From a virus: 64,000 nt of DNA. The stretch is from the IMG/VR virus record IMGVR_UViG_3300020442_003756, positions 2,400-66,399 of that record, one strand, 5' to 3'. Shown piece after piece: positions 22,646 through 63,799 of the stretch (positions are counted from its first letter, which is position 1; the number at the start of each line of letters is the position of its first letter). Below the pieces are notes generated by a model, which had not been told where the DNA came from, did not search any database, and was given only the letters and a program-made list of their open reading frames with translations. The translations under genes and the position numbers were made by a program.

Positions 22646-24607
22646 TTAAATAGTGACTTTAAGTATTATTGGACCAAATTGATCAACACTACCTACTTTT
22701 AAAATATTAAAATTAGAACCTAGCGCAAATTGTTGTGATGGTACAAAACTTGTAGAATTACCAGCACCTGTGACACCTAAACCACTCATTACTACTGGAT
22801 TAATATTTGACTTACTTCCATATGTACCTGCACCTTCTTGAGTTCCAGCTGGTAATGTTATATTCATTGGTGAAGTTTGTTGATTATTAGCAAATAATCT
22901 AACACTATTCAATTGACTACTTCCACTTAATCCACCTGGAGCAGTAATTGTTATAGCAGTTACATCACCTGAACTATTAGTTACACTAGCAGAAAAAGCA
23001 GTTATGTAAGCTAATGCATCACCCGAAGAGCCATTACTATTAGCTACTGCACAACTAAAATGATTATCATCAATTCTTGTTATTGCTCTAAGTAAATAAT
23101 CTTGACCACCAGCATTTCTTACCATTACAACATCACCATTAGTTAAACCATGATTAGAACTTGTAACATTAAGTGTTGTAGTTACTCTATTCCATGATTT
23201 GCCTCCTAATTGATTTCCTGTTGAAGTTAATTCTAATGTATAATCAGAACCGCCTTGATCAATAATATATCTAATTTGACTATTATAAGAAGTAGAACCA
23301 CCACCTGGTGCAGAACTTCCACTTGCACCTGTAATTCCTTGAATACCTTGAACACCTTGAGCACCAGTTGTTCCCTGAGTACCTTGTGTTCCAGTACCTA
23401 TAATACCTTGTATACCTTGAACACCTTGTATACCTTGAACACCTTGTGTTCCTTGTATACCTTGTGCACCAGTAGTACCTTGTGTTCCAGCACCTGTTAT
23501 ACCTTGTATACCTTGTGTTCCTTGTGTTCCTGTAGTACCTTGAATTCCTTGAATACCTTGAATTCCTTGTATACCTTGTGCACCTGTTATACCCTGAATA
23601 CCTTGTGTTCCTTGAGTACCAGTTCCTGTTATACCTTGAATACCTTGAGTTCCTTGAATACCTTGTTGTCCCGTTTGACCTTGTGTACCAGTTTCTCCTT
23701 GAGTACCTGCACCGGTAATACCTTGAATACCTTGAATACCTTGTGTTCCTTGTGTACCAGTAGCACCCTGAGCACCTGTTATACCTTGAGCCCCTGTTGC
23801 ACCTGTAATACCTTGAATACCTTGTGCACCAGTAATACCTTGAGCACCTGTATCACCAGCCGCTCCTTGAACACCTTGGATTCCTTGAATTCCTTGTGTA
23901 CCTGTATCACCTTGAGCTCCAGTAATACCTTGAATACCTTGAATTCCTTGGGTTCCTTGAGCACCAGTAGCTCCTTGAGTTCCAATTGCATCAGCACCTT
24001 GTATACCTTGTATACCTTGTATTCCTTGGGTACCTTGTGTTCCAGTTGAACCACCCGCACCAGTTTCTCCTTGTGTACCTGTTATACCTTGAATACCTTG
24101 AATACCTTGAGCGCCAGTAGTACCTTGTGAACCACTTATACCAGCAATACCTTGAATACCTTGTGCACCTGTTATACCCTGAATACCTTGAGCACCTGTT
24201 GTTCCTTGAGTACCTCCAGGACCTGAAGGTCCTGTTATACCTTGAATACCTTGAATACCTTGTGTTCCTTGAGTACCTGTAGTACCTTGTGCACCAGTAG
24301 TACCCTGAGCACTTGCTAAAGAGTTAAAAAATACTTGACCATCAGCTGTATTAATTGCTAAAGCTTCTACTCTACCATCTAAACTACCTGATATATCCGT
24401 TAAACCATGTAAATGGATACCAGAAGTAATTGAACCTGAAGTAAAAGATTGACTAACTTGGAATGAACCAGTTACTAATAATGAGCCTGAAGTTTTAATC
24501 TGGTAATCTTGTATACCCGTAAATGCATCGACAGATTGAGAAACCTGTAGTGCTTCTATGGTTTGCCCAGTTGCGATCCCAGTTTTGGATAATGATTTAA
24601 GAGCCAT
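22646..24607 (-). CDS. Collagen-like fibre protein 3 (no S74 domain)
   Basis: Gly-X-Y tract about 23325-24305; N-terminus paralogous to fibre 2; HGLTNGDVV C-terminal beta domain. Confidence 0.9.
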   Translation of the reverse strand: MALKSLSKTGIATGQTIEALQVSQSVDAFTGIQDYQIKTSGSLLVTGSFQVSQSFTSGSITSGIHLHGLTDISGSLDGRVEALAINTADGQVFFNSLASAQGTTGAQGTTGTQGTQGIQGIQGITGPSGPGGTQGTTGAQGIQGITGAQGIQGIAGISGSQGTTGAQGIQGIQGITGTQGETGAGGSTGTQGTQGIQGIQGIQGADAIGTQGATGAQGTQGIQGIQGITGAQGDTGTQGIQGIQGVQGAAGDTGAQGITGAQGIQGITGATGAQGITGAQGATGTQGTQGIQGIQGITGAGTQGETGTQGQTGQQGIQGTQGIQGITGTGTQGTQGIQGITGAQGIQGIQGIQGIQGTTGTQGTQGIQGITGAGTQGTTGAQGIQGTQGVQGIQGVQGIQGIIGTGTQGTQGTTGAQGVQGIQGITGASGSSAPGGGSTSYNSQIRYIIDQGGSDYTLELTSTGNQLGGKSWNRVTTTLNVTSSNHGLTNGDVVMVRNAGGQDYLLRAITRIDDNHFSCAVANSNGSSGDALAYITAFSASVTNSSGDVTAITITAPGGLSGSSQLNSVRLFANNQQTSPMNITLPAGTQEGAGTYGSKSNINPVVMSGLGVTGAGNSTSFVPSQQFALGSNFNILKVGSVDQFGPIILKVTI

Positions 24608-41495: not shown

Positions 41496-41524
41496 AAAAT
41501 TTGTTTATTATAAATATTATATAC

Positions 41525-50485: not shown

Positions 50486-51334
50486 TTATATATTGTAAGT
50501 AAATTGATAACCAGAAAAAGAAGCATTAAATTTAGGTATTCTATAATTTTTTAATTCGACTTCAGGTTCAGGTAAAGTATTTCCTAATACAAAAGATTTT
50601 GATGTCCAAATACCATCACCCGCTGTATGGGAAGTATAATCCTCAACATCTTCTTCTGTCATATCAACAAATGGTAAATAATTTTCATTTTGTTTTCTTA
50701 CCCACCTTACTTGTTCAAATTGATTCATTCTAGGTGCGTAAATATCAAAAGGTAAATGTTCAAGATAAACATCTAAAGCTTTACTTACAGGTAATTGATT
50801 TTTATATAACCATTGAGCCCCTTTTCTATTTAAAATATAGGCATGAGCCGCCCATTGATTAGGCATAAAACGTCTATATGCCCCCCAAGTTGAATTTCCA
50901 TGTAATGGTCTATAATCTCTATCATCAACTAATTTGATTCTTTTATTATATTTACCGAGAAAAATACAACCCCAATTTTTTTCTTCAATTCCATCTCTTA
51001 TTTCTTCAATTGTTTCATAATTAAATACTGAGGTTTTAACTATATCATCTTCAAAAAAACAAGCTGTTTCATCTCCACTATCTAAAAATTGTTTCCAAGC
51101 CATTCTATGAGATAAAGCACAACAAATAATTCCAACAGTCCACCAACCATTAGGATCAACAACAACAGGAGCTAAATTTTCTTTAATAAATTCTTTATCA
51201 TGTTGATATACTTGTCCATCAAGAGCAGTAACAACAGTTGTATTTTCAGTACCTAATAATTCTAAGGTTCTATCTCTTCTATGTTTATGTCTTTCTAAAT
51301 TAATGACATAATTTCTTCCAAATCCTAAATTCAT
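50486..51334 (-). CDS. GT25 family glycosyltransferase
   Basis: YVINLERHKHRR, ALDG, CALSH..AW, FFEDD, AHAYILNRKGA, ALDVYL. Confidence 0.88.
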   Translation of the reverse strand: MNLGFGRNYVINLERHKHRRDRTLELLGTENTTVVTALDGQVYQHDKEFIKENLAPVVVDPNGWWTVGIICCALSHRMAWKQFLDSGDETACFFEDDIVKTSVFNYETIEEIRDGIEEKNWGCIFLGKYNKRIKLVDDRDYRPLHGNSTWGAYRRFMPNQWAAHAYILNRKGAQWLYKNQLPVSKALDVYLEHLPFDIYAPRMNQFEQVRWVRKQNENYLPFVDMTEEDVEDYTSHTAGDGIWTSKSFVLGNTLPEPEVELKNYRIPKFNASFSGYQFTYNI

Positions 51335-51660
51335 ATTGATTTACTTAATTCTTCTTCCATTTCATCATCCATAAAAGCAGCCCATTTACCTTTGGGGCAG
51401 GATGAAGACATAGATCTTATTTTTAAAGCTAATATACAACCACAATCTGCACAACAAGGAGCTGTACCAGGCATTGCACAATGATCTCCTTTTCTATCTA
51501 TAAATTCACATCTATCACAAATTGACCATCTTATATCAGCAATTTGCTCAACATCATCTTTAGTGAATACTTTATTTTTAATCCCTTCCGCTATCGCAGG
51601 TAGATTACCAAATGCATTTATTAATTTATTTAGTCTACTCATACTATTTTCATTAACCAA
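51331..51660 (-). CDS. Cys-rich small protein (DUF6171-like)
   Basis: R.SICDRC...C...CCADCGC.L..K......CPKGKW. Confidence 0.65.
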   Translation of the reverse strand: MVNENSMSRLNKLINAFGNLPAIAEGIKNKVFTKDDVEQIADIRWSICDRCEFIDRKGDHCAMPGTAPCCADCGCILALKIRSMSSSCPKGKWAAFMDDEMEEELSKSI

Positions 51661-52256
51661 CTTTCATCTCCAAAATGGAAAACTTCTTTACCATATGATT
51701 TAATTAAACCCTCTACACCTGGCCAATTATAATCATGACCCGCAATAAAAGAACTATCTTTTAATTTAGGTAGATATAAATCTATATCACTCCTTATATC
51801 TTCTATTTTATGACTTCCATCAATGTAAATAAAGTCTATACTTTTATCTTCAAATTTATCAACAACATTATAACTATAATCACTAATTAATTCAACTTCG
51901 GTTTCTCCTAATTCTTTTCCATTACCATTAAACCATTTTGTATTTTGCCAAAAGTCTGCTTGAACATCTGTCCATATTTTATTATTTATTTCATTCATTC
52001 CTTCTTCACCTTCAAAAGGATCAATACAATATATTTTATCAAAGGCTAAAGAAGAGGCAAATAATAAAGTAGATTCACCACTATAAGAACCAATTTCAAT
52101 CATTTTAGTATTTTCTCTATAAGGGAAAGAAAAATGATGAGCAACAGCACCAATCATATCAATTAAACCAAAAAAGTATCTATTAATTCTAGTTTTTTGA
52201 TTATCCATAACAGTAGGATTCCATTCTATTGGAGGATTAAAACGTGTACTTTTCAT
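51639..52256 (-). CDS. Class I SAM methyltransferase (Methyltransf_24-like)
   Basis: IEIGSYSGES, CIDPF, IDFIYIDGSH, AGHDY. Confidence 0.88.
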   Translation of the reverse strand: MKSTRFNPPIEWNPTVMDNQKTRINRYFFGLIDMIGAVAHHFSFPYRENTKMIEIGSYSGESTLLFASSLAFDKIYCIDPFEGEEGMNEINNKIWTDVQADFWQNTKWFNGNGKELGETEVELISDYSYNVVDKFEDKSIDFIYIDGSHKIEDIRSDIDLYLPKLKDSSFIAGHDYNWPGVEGLIKSYGKEVFHFGDESWLMKIV

Positions 52257-52349
52257 AAACTTAAATTTATCATAAATATTACTTCAAACCAAACTCTGTC
52301 TCTCTTATACAATACATCATCCAGCTATACATATATACTATATAACCAT

Positions 52350-52395
52350 AAGATACACAAAATTATTTGGATTGGCAAGGGGTCTTTAGTATATT
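52350..52395. promoter_or_regulatory. Overlapping divergent promoters
   Basis: + strand TTGG(52367)-N18-GTATATT(52389-52395); - strand TTGC(52378)-N18-GTATCTT(52356-52350). Confidence 0.6.
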
Positions 52396-52401
52396 GTCGT
52401 T

Positions 52402-52743
52402 ATGCAGAATCAGTATATACACTTGAAAACGGACAATCTTGAGACCATCGTTGAAAACGAAAAGAAGGTCATAGTAATGTTTGGTTCAAGATTTTGTGGT
52501 TGGTGTAGAATTATTTTAGAAAAATACCTAAATAGTTTGGCTTCCCAAAATAGTGATAGTATATTTGTGTATATAGAAGCAGAAGATCAAATGGGAAGGT
52601 GGATATATCCAAAGTCCATGGGATTACTACCTAAAGAACCCGATCAATGGCCTTGGTGGGCATGCTTTAAAGATGGTAAATGTATTGATACCATCTCCAC
52701 ATCGGCAGTGTGGGATATAAATAAATGGTTAAATAATTTATAA
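52402..52743 (+). CDS. Thioredoxin-like protein
   Basis: VIVMFGSRFCGWC, FVYIEAE, WP...FKDGK. Confidence 0.75.
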   Translation: MQNQYIHLKTDNLETIVENEKKVIVMFGSRFCGWCRIILEKYLNSLASQNSDSIFVYIEAEDQMGRWIYPKSMGLLPKEPDQWPWWACFKDGKCIDTISTSAVWDINKWLNNL

Positions 52744-52747
52744 TATT

Positions 52748-53158
52748 ATGGAATTAATTATTTTTTATGGTTTTGGAGTTATCTCCGTTAGTATTGCTTG
52801 GTTGCTATATAAGGGTGATAAAATAAGCAAACAGAATGATCACATGCTGAGTCGGCTACAACATCACCTAAATATTTCATCTCTCCGAGAAGCAGATTAT
52901 AAAGAAAAGCTGGAGGGGATAGAGGCGTATATTGGTGATATTAATTCAGATATGAAGAAAGATTCGTATAATTCAGTATCTAAACAGAATAGGAAGCTGA
53001 ATGAATTAAACAAGGAGCTAGACAGGTTAAAGGAAGTGTTTAGTATGGAGCAAGTTAAATGTGATACGCATTTTAAATCGGTGGAAGCTTCTATTAAAAG
53101 AACTAGTGATACGTTGGATGCTTTGAGGAATGATCCTAACTTGTTATCTAGATATTAG
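52748..53158 (+). CDS. Membrane-anchored coiled-coil protein
   Basis: N-terminal TM segment followed by heptad-rich region. Confidence 0.6.
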   Translation: MELIIFYGFGVISVSIAWLLYKGDKISKQNDHMLSRLQHHLNISSLREADYKEKLEGIEAYIGDINSDMKKDSYNSVSKQNRKLNELNKELDRLKEVFSMEQVKCDTHFKSVEASIKRTSDTLDALRNDPNLLSRY

Positions 53159-53361
53159 TATATACTTGGTATATCGCAACCTCTTTTTAAAAGCTCTCTT
53201 TTGATGATGTTGCGTTTTCTAGGCAAAGATTTATAAAGTTTCTGTAATTCGTCTGTGGGGGTTCCTGAAACAGTATAATGTTTCCACGTCCACTGATTAG
53301 TCATACGATTATTCCTATCTCTCTTATATTCTTTAGTACTAGGTTTTAACTTGCTTGGCAT
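53155..53361 (-). CDS. Hypothetical basic protein
   Basis: 68 aa ORF, translationally coupled to the upstream small ORF. Confidence 0.6.
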   Translation of the reverse strand: MPSKLKPSTKEYKRDRNNRMTNQWTWKHYTVSGTPTDELQKLYKSLPRKRNIIKRELLKRGCDIPSIY

Positions 53362-53508
53362 TTAAATTGTTCTGAAGCGTCTGGATGAATTCCAATAAAC
53401 ACGTGGTGTATTTCCTAAGAATTTCTTACGATCTATACGTGTGTTAAAATCATTTCTTATTTGATTTAACTGGGTATTTCCATTGTCTTGGTTAGGTGTT
53501 GAGTTCAT
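53362..53508 (-). CDS. Small hypothetical protein (48 aa, not in ORF track)
   Basis: MNSTPNQDNGNTQLNQIRNDF...RRFRTI; stop abuts the next ATG; ATATTTATA motif at 53519-53527. Confidence 0.55.
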   Translation of the reverse strand: MNSTPNQDNGNTQLNQIRNDFNTRIDRKKFLGNTPRVYWNSSRRFRTI

Positions 53509-53840
53509 AAATTATTTATATAAATATATTTACTATACATATATAGTTCCGGATCAAAATCGCCAAATTGTTATATGAAGTTTCCATTACTTACGTATAT
53601 ATTTGTATATACCAATCGATGTGTAAGATCGTGTTCGAGTTATAAATGGCCCCCAACCTTTTTAAGACGTATACACGCATATATGGACATTAGTGCGCGT
53701 GGATTATGTACATAATATGGCGTACGGTATATATATAGAATATGGTAGTAAGTAAGCATACAGGTATAGGTTATAAAGGTGTACCGCCCACATATTTATA
53801 CCGGGGGTTATAAAGCATATAGTAATAAGTATAGATAACA

Positions 53841-53862
53841 GAAGGGCGCGGATGCGCCCCTC
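53841..53862 (-). terminator. Intrinsic terminator candidate after the RadA-like gene
   Basis: GGGCGC-ATCC-GCGCCC stem followed by TTCTGTT on the minus strand. Confidence 0.5.
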
Positions 53863-53906
53863 TAGGTATTCGGTACCAAGTGAGTACCAATGTAAATAAT
53901 TAAAGG

Positions 53907-54701
53907 TTATATTGCCATATTCAATGGCTCGGTAAATAACCACCCGACATGATTCGCGGTATCTAAACTGAAGAATTGCTTATTCATTTCACCACCACGT
54001 CTATTCTTACTAAACCATATCGCTCTACCTCCCTCAGCATTAAACTTCATATGCGCCATAGCAGTAATCATATGTTTAAATCTATTTGAACCAGCGAATT
54101 CACCACCTTTAGTTACCTGTTGAATAATCATAAAACAAGTATTTTTATTTGATTGGTTTTCACCTTTATTATGTTGCTCAAATATATTAAGTAACTTTGT
54201 TTCAGCATTCTTCATTGTACCACCATGAAAATCTACTACCGCAACTGCTAACTCAGCAAATGAATCTACTAATACTGCATCCCAACCTTCATGTAATATA
54301 GATTTTAATATAACAAGTGGATCATGCTCAATCCAATCACCCATAAATAAAATAGGCAACTGACCGAATTTAGGGAATCGCTTAACCATTCCAACCATAT
54401 CAATTTGGTTCATCTCACCTGATATGAATAATGTTTTATTACCGTTGGATTTTAGGTCTGATAGTATATCTAATAATACAGTTGTTTTACCAACTCCAGG
54501 ATCACCAACGAATGCTACGTTAGTACCTTTCATTAATCCACCTTCACTAGATAATAGATTATCAATTTTCTTATTTGTTTTCATTGGAACGAATAATTCT
54601 GGATTGAATTTGAAATCGTCCATTACCATTGTAGTTGGTTTGAAACGTCTTACAACATTACCACCAATACCTTTGTTTAATTTTACTGTTCTATTTAACA
54701 T
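53907..54701 (-). CDS. RadA/Sms-like RecA-superfamily ATPase (ATPase core only)
   Basis: GDPGVGKTT, FISGEM, VLVDS, QVTKGGEFAGSNRFKH, KNRRG (cf. the Sms KNRFG motif). Confidence 0.8.
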   Translation of the reverse strand: MLNRTVKLNKGIGGNVVRRFKPTTMVMDDFKFNPELFVPMKTNKKIDNLLSSEGGLMKGTNVAFVGDPGVGKTTVLLDILSDLKSNGNKTLFISGEMNQIDMVGMVKRFPKFGQLPILFMGDWIEHDPLVILKSILHEGWDAVLVDSFAELAVAVVDFHGGTMKNAETKLLNIFEQHNKGENQSNKNTCFMIIQQVTKGGEFAGSNRFKHMITAMAHMKFNAEGGRAIWFSKNRRGGEMNKQFFSLDTANHVGWLFTEPLNMAI

Positions 54702-54733
54702 AACCTTTATTATTATTAATTATTTACGATGTA

Positions 54734-54778
54734 AATATACGACTATTTCTTGCGGTATCCAAATATTTCCGCGGAAAT
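54734..54778 (-). promoter_or_regulatory. Early promoter TTTGG-N18-GTATATT with upstream perfect 14-bp palindrome ATTTCCGCGGAAAT
   Basis: Motif at 54734-54763; palindrome at 54765-54778. Confidence 0.7.
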
Positions 54779-54990
54779 GTTATGAACAATCGCGGTTCAC
54801 GTATATACTTTCGTTTTACTCGAAAGGGTTGGCTGCGCGGAATAAAGGGGTTAACACCCACTTCAAATTATCCTCGGCACTATATATCCAACTTTCCATA
54901 CATAACTATGTTTTTATATTACAATATTCAAATATTAATAACTAAGGACATACGTAGATCTAAATTCCCACACGTTCACGAATGAATTAT

Positions 54991-55014
54991 AAACGCATCG
55001 CTTAACATGCGTTT
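54991..55014. terminator. Hairpin AAACGCAT-N8-ATGCGTTT, possible terminator of the glycosylation operon
   Basis: Perfect 8-bp stem in the intergenic region downstream of the GT4 gene. Confidence 0.4.
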
Positions 55015-55102
55015 TAAAATGTATATTACGTTATTTGCTTACAAAGCTTTCCCAAGCCACGTCATCATTTGAATATAAAACCCAGGCTACTACACACGGA
55101 TT

Positions 55103-56233
55103 CTACAGCGTATTCATTAAGTGTAACCATTCCTCTACTCGTTTTTCCCACGACTGTTCTATAACCCATTTCTTATTATCCACCGTTTGCTTATACCACT
55201 TATAATGAAACTCCTTATCATCATGACACGAACCATTATCCCTGAATATAACATCCATCATCAATTGCCTCACATCCGAATCTATCCTCCCACTATCAAT
55301 TATATTTCCTCTGCCTATCAACAATGAATCTAAATTACCCGTATTTGTAGAACATATTTTAACTCCACCCATCATCATTTCCAAGGCAGTTATACAATAC
55401 GTTTCTGGGTACTTACTAGGATATAACCAATATTCTGCTTTACTAATTTCCCTATACAAGTCATCTGGCGCTAAGGCTCCCTTCCAAGTCACACCATCTT
55501 GCTCATCTGGAACATGACCCCACCTCTCACTATAAGGCGGACAACAAACAACCAAAGTAGCATCTGGTAATCCCTGTTTTATTTGAGGCCACATAGCAAG
55601 TAAATTATCTAACCCTCTATCTGTTGCACTACTATAAATAAACCTATTATTGACCTTATCTTCCTCAATGTATTCCCAATCTCTAGGATCAATAGCATTA
55701 TTCACTACTTGTATATACGTATGATCATTTTGGGGTATGTAGCCAAGAGCTTTGTTCACTTCTTTTTTAATTAAAGGTACTTGCCATTCACTCACACATA
55801 TCATTTTAGTTAATCTCTCATCATGTAATGTTGCTTTTACTTCATCATTACTTAATTTCCCACCTTTATAATACTCATGCCAATATTCATTATGAACCCA
55901 AAATAATGATTTTTTAAAATTTATATTACAATCATCTAAGACTTTCATATAATTAATATAGTTGATAGCTATTACCCAATCAAAATCTACAAACGCAATT
56001 GCATTAACTCCTCTATTATTGCCTTGATTTATTATCACATCATGATGAATGTAAGTTACTTTATTTACATAACAACCTTCAACATCACCTACTACATAAA
56101 CGCTATGTCCTTTCTTAGCTAATTCCTCACTTAGTTTAATAACACAATATTCACTTCCACCTATACCTTGATCAACCCAAGTTTGACTATTCCATTTCGG
56201 ATTAGCATAGCCGACATAAAACATTATTTTCAT
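55103..56233 (-). CDS. GT4-like (GT-B) glycosyltransferase
   Basis: GIGGSEY, WVHN, CVSEWQ, YSSATDRGL, YPSKYPETYCITALE. Confidence 0.88.
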   Translation of the reverse strand: MKIMFYVGYANPKWNSQTWVDQGIGGSEYCVIKLSEELAKKGHSVYVVGDVEGCYVNKVTYIHHDVIINQGNNRGVNAIAFVDFDWVIAINYINYMKVLDDCNINFKKSLFWVHNEYWHEYYKGGKLSNDEVKATLHDERLTKMICVSEWQVPLIKKEVNKALGYIPQNDHTYIQVVNNAIDPRDWEYIEEDKVNNRFIYSSATDRGLDNLLAMWPQIKQGLPDATLVVCCPPYSERWGHVPDEQDGVTWKGALAPDDLYREISKAEYWLYPSKYPETYCITALEMMMGGVKICSTNTGNLDSLLIGRGNIIDSGRIDSDVRQLMMDVIFRDNGSCHDDKEFHYKWYKQTVDNKKWVIEQSWEKRVEEWLHLMNTL

Positions 56234-56805
56234 TACTCTATTGTTATTGTTCCTTCTTTAACTGCTACTAATTCACTTTGCCAAATGTTAATTGCAATAG
56301 CATATCTAACACCTCTGGTCACTTGTGTTACTCTATGTAAGTGATTACCTGCATTAAATATTACTAATCTATTAAATTTAGCTTCAATTCTTTCTGGTGT
56401 ATTTTCTCTACCTCTGGAGTGTATTTCTAAATAACCACCATCTATATCCATTGGTTTAGGATAAAATACTGTTCCAACTAATGGTGTTAATATTTCACCT
56501 CCATTATTACCACCTGTTCTAGCCCAATGTTCTTCATCCTTATCAAAATGTTGCATTAAATCACTTTGTGGATGTCCATCACCATAAACACCTGTCCAAT
56601 ATTCAAAACCAATTAGGTTATTAAGTACCAACTGGGAATTATATCTCCAAATGTATTCAATTAATCGTTTTTTAATTGTATTTGCTTCACTATTCCACCA
56701 ACCATTCCACCACATGAAATTTCCATTTGGTCCAAAGAATGATTCATCGTTATCAATTGCTTCTAATAACGGTTTATCTTTTATAAAATCGTCTATTACT
56801 ATCAT
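56233..56805 (-). CDS. 2OG-Fe(II) oxygenase
   Basis: EYW, HFDKDE, GGYL, FNRLVIF, HRVT.V..G.RYAIAINIW. Confidence 0.85.
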   Translation of the reverse strand: MIVIDDFIKDKPLLEAIDNDESFFGPNGNFMWWNGWWNSEANTIKKRLIEYIWRYNSQLVLNNLIGFEYWTGVYGDGHPQSDLMQHFDKDEEHWARTGGNNGGEILTPLVGTVFYPKPMDIDGGYLEIHSRGRENTPERIEAKFNRLVIFNAGNHLHRVTQVTRGVRYAIAINIWQSELVAVKEGTITIE

Positions 56806-56806
56806 A

Positions 56807-58237
56807 TTATTTATGGTCTAAATTTTTAATAAAACTTACTACTACGTATCTTGTTCCTTCAGTTACAGGTCTAGCTCCATGTTTATGAGTTATATTACCT
56901 GGATGAAGTGTACACATTCCAATTTCACTTGGATTAGCTAAATATTTGTATTTAGGGAACCAAGTACCCCCACCTTTAAATTCACCTGGATTTAAATTAA
57001 CTAATGTTGTTATATTACTATAATCATGATGAATATCTAAATGTGGTTGTTCATCTGCTTTATATCTAATAACAAATGATTCATCTCTTAAATGTTTCCA
57101 ACTAGAACCTTCTAATTCGAATCTATCTATAGCTAATGGTTTAATATAATGATTAATTACTTTATTATAAATTTCCTTCATACCTAATGTTTCCATTAGA
57201 TTATCTGTTGTAGGATAAAATTCATGTCTATCAGTAGTCCACTTATGTGCTTCAGCTAAGTTAATTAGTTCCTTACAAAAACGTTTTGTAAATAAAGGAA
57301 ATAAATAAACATGAGTAGCTGGTTCATCAATAATTAAATCATATTTTCTGTCAATTAATTGTTTATTAATGTATTTATAGCTCCATTCTTCCCAATTACT
57401 AGCATCTAATATTTCAAATTTAGTTCTTGGTGATTCAAAATTTTCATCAATTGTTACTGTATTGCCTATATTAATTGAAGGTTTTTCTGCTTCAGCTTTA
57501 ACTTGTTTTACATATTCAGGTGTAAATTCAGTTAATGAATCTTTATCATAATGAGATGATTGATTAATATAATCAACATTAAAAGCATAGGCCCTAAAAT
57601 CTGAATTACCTAATACTTCATTACAATCTTGTCTAGGATGTTTACAATGAATAGCAGACATAAATTCATCATATGGTATTAAATTATCTAAGTAACCTGA
57701 ATCTAATATTTCTTTCATACCCTTTCTAGATATCATATAAGCATGAGTATTAAAAGTATAATCACATCTAACTAATGCCTCATTTACTCGTTCTTCCTTA
57801 TCTTTTTCTAAAGCACTTCTACCTAAGTAACAAATACTCCAATCATCATTTAAATGATTAAGTTCAAATTCAGGAAATTTATCAAATTCCTTGTTTAAAT
57901 AAAAATCTTCTTCTAATATTAGAACATTATGATGACCAGCATTATAAGCACCTTCAATTACTTGATAATGAGATAAAGCACAGCCTATTTCACCTGGAGT
58001 TAAGTCTCTACTCCACCAATCATTTTGAGGTTCTTTAGGGTTACTAGGTAATTTCCACCAATCAGCTTGTTTAAACCCATAAGGTGAATCAATATTACCC
58101 TTAACTAAATCCCAACCATTAATAGCAGGAAATTCATACCATGGAACTGGGTCTTTGAAATTTAGTTGTTCAAGATTATCATATATTCTAGCCGAGTCTG
58201 TAGCTAAGTTAATAACGTAAGTAAAATCTATTTTCAT
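56807..58237 (-). CDS. Fusion of COLGALT-like GT25 glycosyltransferase and PLOD-like lysyl hydroxylase
   Basis: N-half LTPGEIGCALSHY..LILEED..WSICYLGR..THAYMIS..IPYDEF..KHP; C-half VYLFPLFT..FC.ELI, FVIRYKADEQPHLDIHHD, GGGTWF, HPGNITHKHG.RPVTEGTRYVVVSF. Confidence 0.88.
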   Translation of the reverse strand: MKIDFTYVINLATDSARIYDNLEQLNFKDPVPWYEFPAINGWDLVKGNIDSPYGFKQADWWKLPSNPKEPQNDWWSRDLTPGEIGCALSHYQVIEGAYNAGHHNVLILEEDFYLNKEFDKFPEFELNHLNDDWSICYLGRSALEKDKEERVNEALVRCDYTFNTHAYMISRKGMKEILDSGYLDNLIPYDEFMSAIHCKHPRQDCNEVLGNSDFRAYAFNVDYINQSSHYDKDSLTEFTPEYVKQVKAEAEKPSINIGNTVTIDENFESPRTKFEILDASNWEEWSYKYINKQLIDRKYDLIIDEPATHVYLFPLFTKRFCKELINLAEAHKWTTDRHEFYPTTDNLMETLGMKEIYNKVINHYIKPLAIDRFELEGSSWKHLRDESFVIRYKADEQPHLDIHHDYSNITTLVNLNPGEFKGGGTWFPKYKYLANPSEIGMCTLHPGNITHKHGARPVTEGTRYVVVSFIKNLDHK

Positions 58238-58401
58238 AACGTTTCTGTTTTAATTATTTTCCAGTTAAAAGGTTGTCTATTTCTTTGGTATTGATCCATA
58301 GACCATTCAATTCTATCTGTTTCTAATTCTATATTATATGGTTTAGTAGAACAATACTTAGTTTCAGTTATGTATTGTATTTCTATAGTATATTTTTTCA
58401 T
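58234..58401 (-). CDS. Small hypothetical protein (55 aa, not in ORF track)
   Basis: MKKYTIEIQY...IEWSMDQYQRNRQPFNWKII; ATGA overlaps at both ends. Confidence 0.6.
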   Translation of the reverse strand: MKKYTIEIQYITETKYCSTKPYNIELETDRIEWSMDQYQRNRQPFNWKIIKTETL

Positions 58402-58742
58402 TGTAACGAATTAATAAAGTGTAACGTCCAAGCAATTAAACCGTTTAATTGCAGCGCAACTAGATTCCATTGTCTTCTTACAGCTACCTGAAATATAACA
58501 CAAATAAATCCAGTCATAAATAATAAAGGTTCTAAAGTCCATTGTCCAGCTATTAAAAAACCAGTACCCATATAACCAATTCGAGATGACATTCTCTCAA
58601 TTGGTGTAAGTTTTCTTTGTCTTACCATCATTCTTAATACTTCTCTCCACCACCTATACTCACATCTACGGCAAGTTTTCTTATCAGATGTTTTATACAT
58701 CCAATCAGGTTGTTTTTGATTACATTGATTACATTTCCTCAT
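58398..58742 (-). CDS. Zn-finger plus membrane hypothetical protein
   Basis: CNQC...CRRC followed by hydrophobic helices. Confidence 0.6.
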   Translation of the reverse strand: MRKCNQCNQKQPDWMYKTSDKKTCRRCEYRWWREVLRMMVRQRKLTPIERMSSRIGYMGTGFLIAGQWTLEPLLFMTGFICVIFQVAVRRQWNLVALQLNGLIAWTLHFINSLQ

Positions 58743-59098
58743 TCTAACTCATCTATAATTACATCAATATCACCTGGATCATCTATTATATTTTGATAAT
58801 ATTTAGTCCACAACTTATGATCTGTAACTAAACATTGTTTACATATTGTTTTTCTAGTCACTGTACTTAATAATTCATCATAAGCTAATAATTCCATTTC
58901 AAAAGCAGGAGGTAAATTTAATTTACCCCAATCTGAATTTTCACCCCAAATTAATTTTCTATTTATTTTTTGAGCTGCAGAAACCATATTAATTTTTTCT
59001 TCCATCCATTCCATTAATGGAGTAGCTGCAGCATATACAGCGGGTAAATTGGTTGGTTTACTACACCAAGCACATGTTTTACTTTTGCCACTCATCAA
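58739..59098 (-). CDS. Hypothetical protein with two CxxC motifs
   Basis: CAWC and CKQC. Confidence 0.55.
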   Translation of the reverse strand: MMSGKSKTCAWCSKPTNLPAVYAAATPLMEWMEEKINMVSAAQKINRKLIWGENSDWGKLNLPPAFEMELLAYDELLSTVTRKTICKQCLVTDHKLWTKYYQNIIDDPGDIDVIIDELE

Positions 59099-59678
59099 CT
59101 ATATCTTTAGGAACAAAATAACCAAAACTAAGTAATACCCTAGGTTTATCTAAGGCTACTTGGGTAGTATAATGCTCATCAATACCAGCAATACACCTCC
59201 ATATTTCATTTTCTTCTACTTTATATTCTATTTCTTTTATTACTGGATTACCTCCAACTAATGGTTTAGAAATTAATGTATTAAATCTAACATGAACAAC
59301 ATCACCTAAATAATCATGAGGTAAATCTTCATTTAATGATTCATCAGGACCTTCAACATTAAAATTAGCATCATTATGTTTATGCACCTGATGTCCTTGA
59401 GTTGAATAACAAATTATAAACCCATAATTAGGTTCAATTTGTAAATCCCAAGGTAATCTATAAAATTCTAATATCTCAGTAGCTATTTTATCTAATTCAG
59501 CATAAGGAAATTTTGCTTCAGCTAATTCTTCATCTATGATGTGTAAATAATCTCTGGCTCTTACATTACCCCCATGTTCTGGTTCATCAGTAATATATTT
59601 AATCCTATTTTCTTCAACCAAAATCCAGTCTAAAATAGGTTGTGTTAATTTTTTAGGTAAAATATAATTGCTTTTCAT
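59079..59678 (-). CDS. Putative 2OG-Fe(II) oxygenase
   Basis: VHKHND, RFN.LISKP..GG.P, H.T..V....PR..LSFG. Confidence 0.7.
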   Translation of the reverse strand: MKSNYILPKKLTQPILDWILVEENRIKYITDEPEHGGNVRARDYLHIIDEELAEAKFPYAELDKIATEILEFYRLPWDLQIEPNYGFIICYSTQGHQVHKHNDANFNVEGPDESLNEDLPHDYLGDVVHVRFNTLISKPLVGGNPVIKEIEYKVEENEIWRCIAGIDEHYTTQVALDKPRVLLSFGYFVPKDIVDEWQK

Positions 59679-60316
59679 TATTGTACTTGTCTTTCACCAT
59701 CTCTACCTACAAAATACCAATAATTATTTGTAAATTGATGGTCATTTCTTAATATATTATCTAATTCAGGTCTAACTACAACATTGCCACTTATAGATAT
59801 ACGATTTTCGTTTGAAGAATTTCTAGTAACAAAATGTAAAATGTCTCTAGAAAAAATATAGATTTTACCTGGTGTTGAATTTATTTCCCACATTATTCTT
59901 TTTGTTTCAACTTGACAGTGGAATATTAAATTACCAGCACCCTTAGGCATATGTGGATAATATACCCAAGATAAACCTAAAACCCCTTTCTCATAATGAT
60001 TATGAATCATTGTTTGTTCACCTGGTGGTGTAAAATGACCCCAAATTTCATTTATTGCTGTTGCTTGATCCATATTAAAAATACCATCAAAAATGTTACT
60101 TACTTTTCCACTTATAGCATCAAAAGTATCATCTTTTAGAGGTACATCTTCATAAAATGTATGTTGCATGTCAACTTCCTTATGAGATGGTCTAGAATCA
60201 TTTAAATTATCACCTGGATTCTCTCTAGTAGTTGTTATTTCTTCAATAAGCGATTCGTTATTTAATTCGAGATCATGCTCGTAATAAAATAAACCGTTAA
60301 TTAATTTTAAACTCAT
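59678..60316 (-). CDS. Putative 2OG-Fe(II) oxygenase (TIGR02466-like)
   Basis: W, HNH, LSWVYY, GNLIF, LHFV..N.S...RISISGN. Confidence 0.8.
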   Translation of the reverse strand: MSLKLINGLFYYEHDLELNNESLIEEITTTRENPGDNLNDSRPSHKEVDMQHTFYEDVPLKDDTFDAISGKVSNIFDGIFNMDQATAINEIWGHFTPPGEQTMIHNHYEKGVLGLSWVYYPHMPKGAGNLIFHCQVETKRIMWEINSTPGKIYIFSRDILHFVTRNSSNENRISISGNVVVRPELDNILRNDHQFTNNYWYFVGRDGERQVQ

Positions 60317-60534
60317 TCTATAATTTGGGCGTCTTCTACTTCCCTACAAATTAATAATTTATCACCTTCTCTTAATACATGATTTGCATCATGATAGTTA
60401 ACATATAATCCTAATAATTCTTTATCAATTTTAGAATCATGTTTTTTTGGAATTATCATTTGGCTAACCTTATAGGTTTTAACTACTTGAAATAACCTAT
60501 CATTAACATACTTAAGATAACTCCCATACATCAT
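60313..60534 (-). CDS. Hypothetical protein
   Basis: Operonic ORF with overlapping start/stop. Confidence 0.6.
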   Translation of the reverse strand: MMYGSYLKYVNDRLFQVVKTYKVSQMIIPKKHDSKIDKELLGLYVNYHDANHVLREGDKLLICREVEDAQIIE

Positions 60535-60764
60535 ACTAATTCTGAATCAGAAACTAACATTACACCAGAATTATTAGCGGGAATATAATAATCAAATTTA
60601 TGGGGGCCAAGTATTTCATTAATTATTTTCTCCTGTAATTCAGGTGATTTACCTGTTATAATCTTAACTTCAACTAATTTACATACTGAATTAATCAGTA
60701 AATATTCCTCAATCTTATTTAAAGCTTTTTCATGGCTTAAACCATGACAATCAATTTCCCACAT
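60531..60764 (-). CDS. Stand-alone Smr-domain protein
   Basis: IDCHGLSHEKA, IITGKS, NSG motifs. Confidence 0.7.
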   Translation of the reverse strand: MWEIDCHGLSHEKALNKIEEYLLINSVCKLVEVKIITGKSPELQEKIINEILGPHKFDYYIPANNSGVMLVSDSELV

Positions 60765-60879
60765 CTTTACTTAATAGCTGTTGTAGCTTTTGAATTTTTA
60801 ATTTAATTTCTTGTGTTTGAGGTTTTAATAACTTCAATTTCACAATCTGTTCTATAATGCTTTCTTTAATTTCTTGCAT
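60751..60879 (-). CDS. Small hypothetical protein (42 aa, not in ORF track)
   Basis: MQEIKESIIEQIVKLKLLKPQTQEIKLKIQKLQQLL fills the gap between genes. Confidence 0.45.
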   Translation of the reverse strand: MQEIKESIIEQIVKLKLLKPQTQEIKLKIQKLQQLLSKDVGN

Positions 60880-61207
60880 AATCGTCTTCAATTCGAACTA
60901 TATCGTCTTCACCGAAATAAGTTCCTGTTTGTACTTCTATAAATAACACTTCCTCATCGGTTTCATTCCAAGCCCTGTGTTTTGCTCCTAAAGGTATGTG
61001 AATTGATTCACCTGGACCTCTAAATACTTTTTCATCATCTAAAACTATAGTTAAATTACCTCTAACTACAGTCCATTGTTCTCTTCGTTTATCATGATAT
61101 TGATATGATAATCTACTATTAGGGTTAACTAATATTTGTTTTACTTTACAATAAGGGGCATCTAATAATACCTCGTATCTACCCCATGGTCTTATACTAC
61201 GTTCCAT
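60866..61207 (-). CDS. Mannose-6-phosphate isomerase type II cupin (ManC C-terminal-like)
   Basis: RPWG.Y, RLSYQYH..R.E.W.VV.G, IEVQTGTYFGEDDIVRIEDDY. Confidence 0.9.
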   Translation of the reverse strand: MERSIRPWGRYEVLLDAPYCKVKQILVNPNSRLSYQYHDKRREQWTVVRGNLTIVLDDEKVFRGPGESIHIPLGAKHRAWNETDEEVLFIEVQTGTYFGEDDIVRIEDDYARN

Positions 61208-61208
61208 T

Positions 61209-62003
61209 TTAAAATCCTAAATGTTTATCTCTACAAAATTCTAAATCAACAATACTGCTTCTAATATCCATCCCCTCTATATTAAATGGGTTTTTCCAAG
61301 GATTAACTGTTCTCCAACCTGGTCCCCATTTTTTAAATAAATACTCAAAATTTTTATCATTTGAGTATGATAATTTTTTGTATAGTTCGGGACTATACTT
61401 TTTAGTGTTCATTCCTGTTTCATAATAATCATGATCAGCTCCATCACTCATTGTACCATTGCCATGATAATATTTAGATTCCAAATTTAACACTGTCTTT
61501 ACCGGTTTTATATGCAGTCTCATTATGTAGTCACTATCTTCGCCGTAGCAAGGATATAGATTTTCATCAAAATAACCATGACTTTGCACTACCCAATCTT
61601 TAATTAAAAACAAATCAAATGAACCTAAACCAAAATCTCCACCATTCCCAAACACTAATCCTGTTTCTTCATCTTGAGCTGCTTCATACATTTCTTTTAA
61701 AAACCCACTACCAAAACTACAATCATGATTAATAATAATCCAATAAGGGGAATGCATAAATGATTTCATAATCATATTCCAACCACCAGCACAACCAATG
61801 TTATAAGGCATATGAAATACCTTTAGATTTTTAATATGTTTGTGCATCCAATTATCAGCAACTAATTTTTCTAATTCCTGATCTAATTCGCCCCCACTAT
61901 TATTAATAATAATATAATTTTCAACTGGGAAGTCAACACTATTAATTTGGCGTTTTAGCCATTTTATTTCGTTAACTATTAATGTTCCAACTACTGGTAT
62001 CAT
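61209..62003 (-). CDS. GT2-like glycosyltransferase
   Basis: IIINN, NIGCAGGWN, INHD, FDENLYPCYGEDSDY. Confidence 0.85.
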   Translation of the reverse strand: MIPVVGTLIVNEIKWLKRQINSVDFPVENYIIINNSGGELDQELEKLVADNWMHKHIKNLKVFHMPYNIGCAGGWNMIMKSFMHSPYWIIINHDCSFGSGFLKEMYEAAQDEETGLVFGNGGDFGLGSFDLFLIKDWVVQSHGYFDENLYPCYGEDSDYIMRLHIKPVKTVLNLESKYYHGNGTMSDGADHDYYETGMNTKKYSPELYKKLSYSNDKNFEYLFKKWGPGWRTVNPWKNPFNIEGMDIRSSIVDLEFCRDKHLGF

Positions 62004-62887
62004 ATTTGTTCTTTTAAGTATTCTTCTAATGTTTTTAATTTACCTATGTTTAATAAGCTAGTTTTTAAAGCATATTTTCTATCATGACCTAACCTATCTT
62101 CTACAAATTTATATTTTACTTTTTTACCTAATAATTCACCTACCTTTTGTACTACTTCTTTATTAGTCCATCTATCACCTGAACCTATATTTAAAGCACC
62201 TGTATTTAGTAAGCTATCATTTTGCATCATATCAAAGATAATTCTAACATTATCCTCAACCCACATCCATTCTCTAACTTGTTCACCATCACCATAAATT
62301 GGAATTGGAATATCATTTTTAATACTATTAAATATAGTAGGTAAAAACTTTTCACTGTTTTGATCAGTACCAAAATTATTACAAGTACGAGTTATAATAT
62401 GAGGTAAACCATAAGTTCTACCTGCAGCCATAACTAACATTTCAGCTGCTGCTTTAGTAGCTGAATAATAAGATGATGGTTCTAATCTATCAAATTCATG
62501 TGATGGTTTTTGTCCTTCAACATCACCATATACTTCATCAGTTGATATTTGTACAAATCGTTTTAATGAAGGTATTTGTCTAGCTATTTCAAGCATATTA
62601 AATGTACCTTCAACATTAGATTTTATAAATGGTTTACCATCTTTTATTGATCTATCAACATGTGATTCAGCAGCAAAATTAACTATGTAATCAGCATCTT
62701 GGCAAGCAAAACTAACATCATCACAAATATCTTTTATTATTAAATCATAGCTGTAACCATCTAACCTACTTTTATCAGCAGCATAAGTCATATTATCAAT
62801 CACAATACAATGAGCACCCTGATCAGTAGCATATCTAACAAAAGCGGAACCAATAAATCCTAAACCACCTGTAACTACTATTTTCAT
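62000..62887 (-). CDS. rmlB: dTDP-glucose 4,6-dehydratase
   Basis: VTGGLGFIGS, NFAAESHVDRSI, ISTDEVYG, YSATK, DRLGHDRKYA. Confidence 0.93.
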   Translation of the reverse strand: MKIVVTGGLGFIGSAFVRYATDQGAHCIVIDNMTYAADKSRLDGYSYDLIIKDICDDVSFACQDADYIVNFAAESHVDRSIKDGKPFIKSNVEGTFNMLEIARQIPSLKRFVQISTDEVYGDVEGQKPSHEFDRLEPSSYYSATKAAAEMLVMAAGRTYGLPHIITRTCNNFGTDQNSEKFLPTIFNSIKNDIPIPIYGDGEQVREWMWVEDNVRIIFDMMQNDSLLNTGALNIGSGDRWTNKEVVQKVGELLGKKVKYKFVEDRLGHDRKYALKTSLLNIGKLKTLEEYLKEQI

Positions 62888-63363
62888 TGACCTATTTTAT
62901 CTTTATTACTTATTACTATATCTTTAACATGGTTAACTTTATCAACTATTACTTTTACTACCCCAGGAATTGAATGCCAAGGTATACTATGGTCATGTTC
63001 AGGAGCATAATGATTATCTATTAAATAAGTAACTATAGTATTGGGTTCTAATGTTAAAAAACCATGTGCTTTAGTTTTAGGAACAAATATAGCTTCCTGG
63101 TCATTTAATTCAAACCATTCTACTTCTTTAGTTTCTAAATCATATAAAAAATCAATTATTTTACCTTGTATTACTTTAAGATATTTATTTTGTGCTGTTT
63201 CAAATGCTTGGTAGTGCATACCTCTAAATGTATGAACATTAGGGTTAACACTAATATTAGCTTGTAACCATTTTTTAACTGATTCAGGACCGCATTGTAA
63301 ATCTATTGGCGTAAAAGAACCTCTATCATCAATAAAGGTTTTATGATTTCTTACTTTTGGCAT
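62884..63363 (-). CDS. rmlC: dTDP-4-dehydrorhamnose 3,5-epimerase-like
   Basis: DDRGSF, FRGMHYQ, QNK, AHGFLTL, Y.P, SNKD. Confidence 0.85.
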   Translation of the reverse strand: MPKVRNHKTFIDDRGSFTPIDLQCGPESVKKWLQANISVNPNVHTFRGMHYQAFETAQNKYLKVIQGKIIDFLYDLETKEVEWFELNDQEAIFVPKTKAHGFLTLEPNTIVTYLIDNHYAPEHDHSIPWHSIPGVVKVIVDKVNHVKDIVISNKDKIGQ

Positions 63364-63799
63364 TTATTATATCTGGATTTTGTTTATAAGTTTGTTGTGT
63401 TATTAAATCTTTTAATTTAGTAGTTGACCAACCATGAGCTCTACTAGTATATAATACAGGAATATTTAGATGGTCTCCTGTAAATCGTTTGCCTAAATAA
63501 TCTTCGCCTAATACTCTTAAATCAGGTTTAAAGTGTTCAATTAAACCTAATAATTCATCTTCAGTACTATAAATAAATACTTCATCTATATACTGAATTG
63601 ACATTAATGCTCTATATCTTTCATATAATGGAATTACTGGTTTGTATTTGTTTCTATTATACGCAGATGGATCAGCATGTAAAAACACTATGAAATGATC
63701 ACAATGTTTTTTAGCATCCTCAAATGTATAAATGTAACCTGGATGTAATAAATCGAAATTACCAGCAGTAAAACCTACAATTTTTTTAATAGCCTTCAT
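63341..63799 (-). CDS. Cytidylyl/adenylyltransferase (TagD/RfaE-II-like)
   Basis: AGNFDLLHPGY, ER, IDEV, LGEDY, SRAHGWSTT. Confidence 0.85.
   Translation of the reverse strand: MKAIKKIVGFTAGNFDLLHPGYIYTFEDAKKHCDHFIVFLHADPSAYNRNKYKPVIPLYERYRALMSIQYIDEVFIYSTEDELLGLIEHFKPDLRVLGEDYLGKRFTGDHLNIPVLYTSRAHGWSTTKLKDLITQQTYKQNPDIINAKSKKS

Follow-up and report, generated by a model that had tools for sequence, protein, structure and literature searches.

A predicted collagen lysine hydroxylation and glycosylation module in an uncultured marine tailed phage

The IMG/VR virus record IMGVR_UViG_3300020442_003756 is a linear contig of 66,399 bases, estimated by CheckV to be 41% complete, and the stretch analysed here (bases 2400-66399, 64,000 nucleotides, hereafter the window) runs at its right edge to the end of the contig. 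Nearly all genes of the window lie on the minus strand, and they include three genes for collagen-like fibres as well as an enzyme block at 50-64 kb, in which a protein of 476 amino acids (aa) joins a glycosyltransferase (GT) of family GT25 to a domain resembling the collagen lysyl hydroxylases (LH) of animals and mimivirus. The question that this locus raises is what such enzymes act on in a virus of bacteria: the collagen-like fibres of the virion, the surface of the host, another protein or small molecule, or the phage DNA. A first-pass annotation, made from the letters alone, had proposed a complete-looking, giant-virus-like system that glycosylates virion proteins, with sugar supply, transferases and collagen substrates in one genome. 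The core that is predicted here from sequence is narrower than such a system, namely a module for the hydroxylation and O-glycosylation of collagen lysine, and it is probable, if well short of certain, that the phage matures its own collagen-like tail fibres by means of this hydroxylase, the GT25 and GT4 transferases and further oxygenases, in a series of steps each of which we infer.

The hydroxylase fusion, its companions and the fibres

The fusion protein matches, besides the GT25 family (Table 1), the OGFOD2-like and 2OG-FeII_Oxy_3 families of 2-oxoglutarate (2OG)-dependent oxygenases. In a phmmer search of the Protein Data Bank (PDB), the hydroxylase domains of human LH3 (E 3.6e-26) and mimivirus L230 (6ax6, E 1.3e-23, 30% identity) align with its residues 281-470, and human COLGALT1 aligns with its residues 73-232 (E 7e-16). 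The AlphaFold model, built from 26 homologues, has a mean predicted local distance difference test (pLDDT) value of 83, and its best Foldseek matches are full-length LH3, COLGALT1, the LH domain of L230 and mimivirus R655; the superposition on L230 (6ax6_B) gives a template modelling (TM) score TMt of 0.85 and a root-mean-square deviation (rmsd) of 2.3 over 204 columns, and that on COLGALT1 (9evj) an rmsd of 3.8 over 250 columns, with the prolyl hydroxylases far behind (E 1e-6 or weaker). In the 26-sequence alignment Y392, H403, D405, H453 and R463 are invariant. The residues for Fe2+ and 2-oxoglutarate align with the HHD, HYH and TRY stretches of LH3, and their spacing is that of Y814, H825, D827, H877 and R887 of L230, which are its Fe and 2-oxoglutarate ligands (PMC5802723). 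Sequence and model together predict that the C-terminal domain of the fusion is of the collagen LH type. The GT25 domain has an invariant E109-E110-D111 in the same homologues. The stand-alone GT25 protein also finds COLGALT1 as its best PDB match (E 7.7e-11, versus E 0.012 for the bacterial GT25 8xlz) and has an E-D-D aligned with that of COLGALT1.

The GT4-type enzyme gave no useful match in a sequence search of the PDB. Its model (pLDDT 91.8) has the two-Rossmann GT-B fold, the nearest folds being 7qsg (a mannosyltransferase), BshA (3mbo) and PimA (2gej) at TM 0.62-0.66, and E277 and E285 are invariant among 25 sequences, with a spacing which we take to be that of the E-x7-E motif of retaining GT4 enzymes. 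Two stand-alone oxygenases are of the P4H/PKHD type. The one encoded between the GT4 and the fusion has H86-x-D88 plus a later His and Arg, the other is encoded downstream of the collagen genes, and for both the PDB sequence search gave generic PKHD/P4H matches only. The GT2, the GT4, the stand-alone GT25 and the GT25-PLOD fusion had all been named in the first-pass annotation and are borne out by Pfam and PHROGs, the fusion and the GT4 by fold as well, and its three collagen fibres are borne out by PF01391; the three stand-alone oxygenases of Table 1 and the confinement of lysine to the Y position of the fibres are additions to it.

Fibres A and B end in a Peptidase_S74 domain, an intramolecular chaperone typical of trimeric phage fibres. 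G-X-Y triplets number 684 in fibre A (in 7 runs), 221 in fibre B and 107 in fibre C. The Y position of fibre A is occupied by Gln in 56%, Thr in 25% and Lys in 10% of triplets and its X position by Thr in 32%; proline is scarce, making up 5% of X and standing outside the ten commonest residues at Y. Lysine is found at Y and never at X, with 66 versus 0 residues in fibre A and 23 versus 0 in fibre B (together 89 versus 0). The triplets of fibre A form five main blocks, which are split by three copies of a 117-aa domain and by one 113-aa domain, and since the rise of collagen is 0.286 nm per residue, its collagen part would span about 0.6 micrometres.

Other features of the fibres may be recorded here. 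The globular 117-aa copies of fibre A occupy residues 599-715, 1381-1497 and 2023-2139 and each begins SFDY/F-S/T-FD, the 113-aa domain (residues 899-1011) is unrelated to them, and the G-X-K-G sites fall mostly within residues 1600-2577. In fibre B, 17 of the G-X-K-G sites lie in the region of about residues 300-520. Over about 30 residues at the N-terminus, fibres B and C are nearly identical (MALK...TG..TGQTIEALQVSQS), and this common N-terminus suggests a shared attachment adaptor for interchangeable fibres. In addition, collagen-like open reading frames (ORFs) of at least 3,334 and at least 4,070 aa, with about 590-600 G-T/S-S triplets and no lysine, are found in close relatives (L311, G080 8000-19000, and L312, G084 29000-42500; L-numbers denote related viral loci and G-numbers the viral records compared), and they are among the longest phage fibre genes encountered.

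The maturation proposed for the fibres would begin in the cytoplasm of the host, where the C-terminal domain of the fusion would hydroxylate the Y lysines of G-X-K-G sites on unfolded fibre chains with Fe2+, 2-oxoglutarate and O2, and the fused COLGALT-like GT25 domain would move a hexose from a UDP-sugar onto the new hydroxyl; the donor of the homologous GT domain of L230 is UDP-Glc (PMC9614988). The GT4, which is fused directly to the hydroxylase in most related phages, would add or extend the sugar, the two P4H-type oxygenases would hydroxylate other residues of the fibre, and the chains would trimerise by way of the C-terminal S74 chaperone domain. The feasibility of the hydroxylation step is favoured by the report that L230 hydroxylates co-expressed L71 in Escherichia coli (PMC9546862). 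This chemistry points to hydroxylysine-linked glycans at predicted G-X-K-G sites and not to generic Ser/Thr glycosylation, and the many G-X-T triplets may be O-glycosylated at Thr as well.

Table 1. Genes of the window discussed in the text, with their principal family matches
Feature	Position	Strand	Length (aa)	Matches
GT25 (COLGALT-like) and collagen lysyl hydroxylase (PLOD/L230-like) fusion, predicted	56807..58237	-	476	PF01755 57.1 bits (cut-off 24)
Stand-alone GT25	50486..51334	-	282	PF01755 57.5 bits (cut-off 24)
GT4-type (GT-B) glycosyltransferase	55103..56233	-		Glyco_trans_1_4 28.5 bits (cut-off 27)
P4H/PKHD-type 2OG-Fe(II) oxygenase	56233..56805	-	190	PF13640 36.8 bits
Second P4H/PKHD-type 2OG-Fe(II) oxygenase	4737..5363	-	208	PF13640 51.9 bits
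2OG-FeII_Oxy_5 oxygenase	59678..60316	-	212	PF13759 29.6 bits; phrog_81 E 1.8e-22
Three small conserved proteins, between the 2OG-FeII_Oxy_5 oxygenase and the fusion	58398..59678	-	199, 119, 114	
Fibre A, collagen-like	8562..16676	-	2704	PF01391 953 bits; PF13884; C-terminal Peptidase_S74 chaperone domain
Fibre B, collagen-like	16773..20570	-	1265	PF01391 324 bits; PF13884; C-terminal Peptidase_S74 chaperone domain
Fibre C, collagen-like	22646..24607	-	653	PF01391 152 bits
CTP_transf_like nucleotidyltransferase (cytidylyl/adenylyl)	63341..63799	-	152	PF01467 47 bits; phrog_7878 E 1.9e-29
RmlC-type dTDP-4-dehydrorhamnose 3,5-epimerase	62884..63363	-	159	PF00908 90 bits
RmlB-type dTDP-glucose 4,6-dehydratase	62000..62887	-	295	TIGR01181 285 bits, under cut-off 365
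GT2 glycosyltransferase	61209..62003	-	264	PF00535 28.1 bits; phrog_29879 E 1.7e-23
ManC C-terminal-type cupin (PMI-like)	60866..61207	-	113	PF01050 96.9 bits
Class I S-adenosylmethionine methyltransferase (Methyltransf_24)	51639..52256	-		PF13578 69 bits
APS-kinase-like P-loop protein	1971..2417	-	148	Pfam 57.7 bits; under every NCBIfam cut-off

Relatives with and without the hydroxylase

The Baseplate_J-like protein of the window is 44% identical to its counterparts in Flavobacterium phage vB_FspM_immuto (160 kb) and Microcystis phage Mel-JY01, vB_FspM_immuto being the nearest cultured relative by this protein, and its close relatives are encoded by at least 595 IMG/VR stretches. Judged from this identity and from these related stretches, the phage belongs to a group of marine myophages that is common and for the most part uncultured. 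Megablast of the 13.3-kb enzyme region against the phages of GenBank gave no DNA match. A scan for the fusion in one genome per prokaryote species gave a single locus (L322, PACV01000028.1, 9.8 kb, 29% guanine + cytosine (GC)), whose contig has been binned into a Flavobacteriaceae metagenome-assembled genome; because this locus carries the same phage block as the window, it is probably a piece of a phage genome and at best hints at the host.

The fusion family comprises at least 552 protein clusters at E 0.001, and the 120 clusters listed cover 92-100% of the query length at 47-100% identity and come mostly from marine metagenomes. A scan of viral contigs with the fusion as a single sequence gave no match, so that an alignment-based profile was needed; the profile scan of IMG/VR gave 154 relatives, the best 80 of which were analysed as loci. 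The LH domain is fused in 78 of these 80 loci, to a GT4 in 54, to a GT25 in 19 and to both in 5, with neither partner in the remaining 2. In 75 loci a homologue of the GT4 of the window is encoded no more than 10 kb from the LH domain, and 59 loci have the two fused. Homologues of the oxygenase that adjoins the fusion in the window stand directly after the fusion in 8 of the 24 GT25-LH loci and also in L322.

Collagen ORFs, defined by at least 12 triplets, were sought in the neighbourhood of the LH gene, that is, within 10 kb of it; 54 of the 80 loci have one, always on the strand of the LH gene. The control, 80 loci centred on the baseplate gene and drawn from the same phage group (1,019 kb in total), held no such ORF. 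When the loci are clustered at 90% identity of the LH domain, collagen stands beside the enzyme in 14 of 28 clusters. Furthermore, a homologue of the second P4H-type oxygenase lies within 10 kb in 53 of the 80 LH loci, and among the six maps printed, all five that hold a collagen gene have it upstream of the LH gene and have the oxygenase homologue directly after the collagen gene or genes. In the T4-like locus L042 the order is two collagens, the P4H-like gene, a 429-aa GT2 and a GT4-LH fusion, then the tail-sheath-stabiliser, sheath and tube genes, and L054 has the same order; from the gene order of L042 it follows that the module lies inside the virion structural block.

The composition of the collagens was also compared. 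Those adjoining an LH gene have lysine at Y in up to about one third of their triplets and almost never at X, as in L085 (115 versus 3). In record G100 the fusion is present and two collagens lie about 35 kb off, a spacing like that of the window. Of the 90 and 263 triplets of these two collagens, 27 and 106, respectively, have lysine at Y, and none has it at X. The hydroxylase was found in none of 30 baseplate-related records, 12 of which have collagen, most of these contigs ending before the equivalent region. Two records that reach this region, G078 (87 kb) and G079 (68.6 kb), have no hydroxylase and have collagens with no lysine, and G078 moreover has no homologue of the second P4H-type oxygenase between flanking genes that are kept. 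The N-terminal half of a GT4 homologue is still present in G078 (residues 3-191 matched at 29% identity, the frame having 232 aa; L309 12198-12875, G078 32212-32784), and by its sequence this half gene may be what is left of a module since lost.

An arbitrary sample of collagen-bearing viral loci (80 loci in 68 records, 60 of them searched) gave one weak match in the LH range and two in the GT25 range. Lysine at Y was tried as a discriminating marker and found insufficient, as arbitrary viral collagens share it, some of them in records in which no hydroxylase is found; therefore, it is necessary for the proposed modification and is not evidence for it alone.

Taken with the homology, the fold, the catalytic residues and the fusions, this neighbourhood makes the modification of the phage's own fibres well supported for the fusion, the GT4 and the two P4H-like oxygenases. 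To that extent the giant-virus-like glycosylation of own fibres put forward by the first-pass annotation is upheld; it was too broad, however, and its link to the sugar-supply genes is loose.

Sugar-supply genes and the remainder of the window

The genes for RmlC, RmlB and the GT2 stand between those for the nucleotidyltransferase and the cupin. The nucleotidyltransferase and RmlC genes overlap by 23 bases, RmlC and RmlB by 4 and RmlB and GT2 by 4, and a single base separates GT2 from the cupin; from these overlapping or abutting stops and starts it is argued that the five are co-expressed. All top PDB matches of RmlC are dTDP-4-dehydrorhamnose 3,5-epimerases (best 3ryk, E 1.6e-18), and those of RmlB are dTDP-glucose 4,6-dehydratases (best 2hun, E 2.2e-57), with STDEVYG and YSATK kept. 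The nucleotidyltransferase is nearest to RfaE domain II and TagD (TIGR02199 68.6 bits and TIGR01518 58 bits, both under the cut-off).

In the lineage of the window (L009 to L018 and L322) a block is conserved that consists of the nucleotidyltransferase, the cupin, small ORFs, a 2OG_Oxy_5 oxygenase, further small ORFs, the GT25-LH fusion, a P4H-like oxygenase and a GT4. Homologues of the 2OG-FeII_Oxy_5 oxygenase of the window are found in L011, L012, L013, L017 and L322, and it belongs to this block. The three small proteins encoded between it and the fusion match no Pfam family at E 0.01 or better, and their homologues occupy the same place in L012, one of the three being present in L322 as well. 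The nucleotidyltransferase and the cupin form a single fused ORF next to the LH block in L016 (8238-8969), L018 (1-621) and L322 (3048-3785), and because of this fusion they are taken to act together; the fused ORF resembles the layout of ManC, with a different nucleotidyltransferase fold. The cupin is found in none of the 30 LH-free baseplate relatives, most of whose contigs stop before the equivalent region. On this comparison of sequences we conclude that the predicted donor-making pair of nucleotidyltransferase and cupin is part of the module in this lineage.

The other genes are less closely tied to it. RmlC is found in none of the 24 GT25-LH loci and RmlB in one, by a weak match of 26% identity, which counts against a place for them in fibre modification, and GT2 homologues occur in two of the 24, L011 and L012. 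Homologues of the Methyltransf_24 enzyme are found near the fusion in L012, L013, L015 and L018. It is concluded that RmlB and RmlC are a recent local addition, whose target is either the fibre glycan or the host surface. That the nucleotidyltransferase, the cupin, RmlB, RmlC, the GT2, the second GT25 and the methyltransferase all elaborate the same fibre glycan, as their position and operon structure suggest, is possible, and we would place it somewhat below an even chance.

The dTDP-L-rhamnose pathway is represented by RmlB and RmlC only, and the contig lacks the enzymes for the first and the last of its steps: no match to PF00483 (RmlA) was found across all 66,399 bases of this 41% complete contig, and the rmlD model matches only the RmlB gene there (54 bits versus a cut-off of 224). 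The remainder of the genome or the host may be the source of the missing steps. The first-pass annotation had itself found RmlA and RmlD lacking in the window, and this extends to the contig as a whole. Its RmlB, RmlC, ManC-type cupin and nucleotidyltransferase are likewise confirmed by matches in Pfam, NCBIfam, PHROGs and the PDB. Of the two methyltransferases it reported, the Methyltransf_24 enzyme stands, and the second has only a weak FkbM match (E 0.035, in 2423-3688). Its APS kinase is APS-kinase-like by Pfam, stays under all NCBIfam cut-offs and has no sulfotransferase partner, and a GT9-like enzyme that it placed in a cluster I (3690-4733) has no Pfam match even at E 5, its neighbours in the ESM Atlas being unnamed phage clusters. 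The description of the system as complete-looking finds no support: steps of the rhamnose pathway are missing, RmlB and RmlC stand beside the module only here, the GT9 is unsupported and a sulfotransferase is lacking.

The APS-kinase-like gene was considered as a source of sulfation. Neither ATP sulfurylase nor sulfotransferase families were found among the window ORFs scanned, and in the absence of these partner enzymes the idea is unsupported. At 1624-2417, an NMNAT-like gene (116 aa) and the APS-kinase-like gene match the C- and N-terminal halves, respectively, of phrog_10255 ("kinase"), so in sequence the pair resemble a single phage protein that is split or encoded by two genes; neither gene finds a match in G078, though the flanking genes remain.

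As to the remainder of the window, the left end carries a primase gene, adjoined by a GIY-YIG homing endonuclease gene of the SegE type (1090-1575), and the three fibre genes follow. Past the fibres come genes for very large structural proteins and the gp25-like and Baseplate_J-like baseplate genes, and a staphylococcal-nuclease-like gene is found at 47073-47411. The only plus-strand island, at 52402-53158, encodes a thioredoxin-like protein and a 136-aa ORF without assigned function, and its GC skew is reversed (+0.107 versus about -0.25 in the surroundings).

Alternative substrates and known systems

Several observations weigh against the maturation of fibres by these enzymes. Lysine at Y is favoured for the stability of the triple helix as such. 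In the window the enzymes do not adjoin the fibres, from which they are 32 to 48 kb apart, and the triplets of fibre C hold no lysine at either Y or X, because of which this fibre is not a predicted substrate of the hydroxylase. The collagens that the fusion does adjoin in G101 to G103 have only 4 lysines per 139 to 164 triplets, and conversely G001 (85% complete; 19 lysines at Y in 114 triplets) and G003 have collagens rich in Y lysine in records without a hydroxylase. The 80 loci are interrelated, so their counts are not counts of independent events; the records are fragments, and G078 and G079 are the only informative relatives free of both hydroxylase and lysine. The module occurs in no cultured phage of the GenBank phage set, all matches there being partial and below 30% identity. 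Moreover, the metal motif of the fusion is E-E-D where COLGALT1 and L230 have E-D-D, that of L230 being E106-D107-D108 (PMC9614988).

Three other substrates have to be weighed on the same evidence. The transferases and sugar-nucleotide enzymes might alter the lipopolysaccharide (LPS), capsule or another surface glycan of the host, for example against superinfection, the fibres remaining unglycosylated. In marine T4-like pelagimyophages, the GTs of the host-recognition cluster have been read in this way (PMC7029224), GT25 is a family of LPS biosynthesis by its Pfam name and by the sources of its homologues, RmlB, RmlC, an RfaE-like transferase and a GT2 are typical O-antigen or capsule genes, and the distribution of RmlB and RmlC does not follow that of the hydroxylase module. 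For the peripheral genes alone this remodelling is plausible; as an account of the locus it is improbable, as it leaves unexplained both the fusion of a GT25 or GT4 to a collagen-type lysyl hydroxylase in nearly all of the 80 loci and the position of the module after collagen genes in the structural block, and both GT25 proteins are closer to COLGALT1 than to bacterial GT25.

There is a slender chance that the oxygenases act on some other protein, for instance a translation factor of the host, or on a small molecule, for instance a secondary metabolite, and that their proximity to fibres reflects a shared hypervariable accessory region. Bacterial P4H/PKHD-type enzymes modify EF-Tu and ribosomal proteins, and structures of this kind appear in the weaker part of the fold matches; arrays of dioxygenases in cyanophages have been proposed to serve secondary metabolism (PMC2938197), and the distance between enzymes and fibres in the window agrees with such a role. 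It is opposed by the LH3 and L230 matches of the fusion, which by far surpass every match to a prolyl hydroxylase, by the nearness of collagen in LH loci and not in control loci, and by the lysine-free relatives in which the enzyme is lacking. The hypermodification of DNA, in which oxygenases and GTs would hydroxylate and glycosylate phage bases and so evade restriction, is scarcely probable at all. Phage GTs classically glucosylate hydroxymethylcytosine (PMC9614988), the PHROGs family matched by the methyltransferase is labelled "DNA methyltransferase", and the contig is less than half of a genome; however, TET/JBP and thymidine hydroxylase families are not matched by any of the four oxygenases, no gene for a base hydroxymethylase was seen in the window, and the fusion partners are collagen-type enzymes.

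If the phage does mature its own fibres, hydroxylysine-linked glycosylation of collagen, which is known from animals and mimivirus, would extend to viruses of bacteria, and a function would be found for part of the auxiliary 2OG-Fe(II) oxygenase and GT genes of marine phages, which are now regarded as modifiers of LPS or as cryptic (PMC7029224, PMC9301287). The finding also bears on the origin of the animal enzymes for collagen lysine. A wider proposal is that a large uncultured clade of marine myophages carries out animal-style collagen maturation in the bacterial cytoplasm, lysine being hydroxylated and a glycan then built on the hydroxylysine by fused GT25 or GT4 enzymes or both; that in this phage the glycan is elaborated with a 6-deoxyhexose and methyl groups from its own donor genes and so sets host recognition or shields the fibre; and that the compact phage fusions are candidates for the stock of L230 and perhaps of the animal PLOD and COLGALT. 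This we hold to be unlikely. In addition, the fusion of the window (476 aa) and the GT4-LH fusions (about 560 aa) might be candidates for the production of hydroxylated and glycosylated recombinant collagen. The phage fusions come from viruses of bacteria and therefore might be made in E. coli, as mimivirus L230 and R699 were (PMC9546862).

Among characterised systems the closest is mimivirus L230 with its collagens, and L230 is like the phage fusion in having an N-terminal GLT25D1-like GT and a C-terminal lysyl hydroxylase; it hydroxylates lysine and adds glucose, and hydroxylysine has been found in virions (PMC9614988). Two further mimivirus proteins are R699, which glucosylates galactosyl-hydroxylysine, and R655, which is GLT25D-like (PMC9546862). 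Both mimivirus and this phage encode proline-poor collagens with lysine at Y. The phage fusion is shorter, however (476 versus 895 aa), without the long middle region of L230, and the phage module has a GT-B (GT4) enzyme, which L230 lacks. The phage is, unlike mimivirus, a tailed virus of a bacterial host, and its enzyme is known from sequence and model.

The animal enzymes PLOD/LH1-3 and COLGALT1/2 have LH and GT25 domains homologous to those of the phage, and the predicted site in the phage is likewise a Y lysine in X-K-G. The human hydroxylase and galactosyltransferase associate physically (title of PDB 8zgc), whereas in the phage they are fused; the animal reaction takes place in the lumen of the endoplasmic reticulum and that of the phage would be cytoplasmic in a bacterium. 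The phage has a GT4 (GT-B) instead of the GT-A glucosyltransferase and accessory domain of LH3, no lysyl oxidase or other cross-linking enzyme was seen in its window, and its fibre collagens are rich in Gln and Thr and nearly free of proline, unlike animal collagen.

Bacillus anthracis BclA is a prokaryotic precedent, a collagen-like exosporium filament which is described as carrying rhamnose-containing O-glycans, and the window likewise combines Thr-rich fibres with RmlB and RmlC. The glycans of BclA are Thr-linked, and a full rmlACBD operon is nearby. No lysyl hydroxylase is involved in BclA, and the window has two of the four Rml steps. Mycobacteriophage Che8 and its relatives are tailed phages whose own GTs glycosylate virion proteins (PMC11256854, citing Freeman et al. 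2023), but the targets are capsid proteins and not collagen, there is no hydroxylase step, and neither the host group nor the enzyme families are related to those of the window. Hydroxylation and sulfation of bacterial collagen-like proteins were predicted by Iyer and colleagues through other dioxygenase families (PMC2938197), GTs of marine phages have been read as modifiers of the host O-chain (PMC7029224), and the role of a viral prolyl hydroxylase has been called cryptic (PMC9301287). In the full-text literature searched, which covers few subscription journals, no paper was found on a lysyl hydroxylase, or on the glycosylation of hydroxylysine, in a tailed phage. The predicted phage module is regarded as a new form of a chemistry that occurs in animals and giant viruses.

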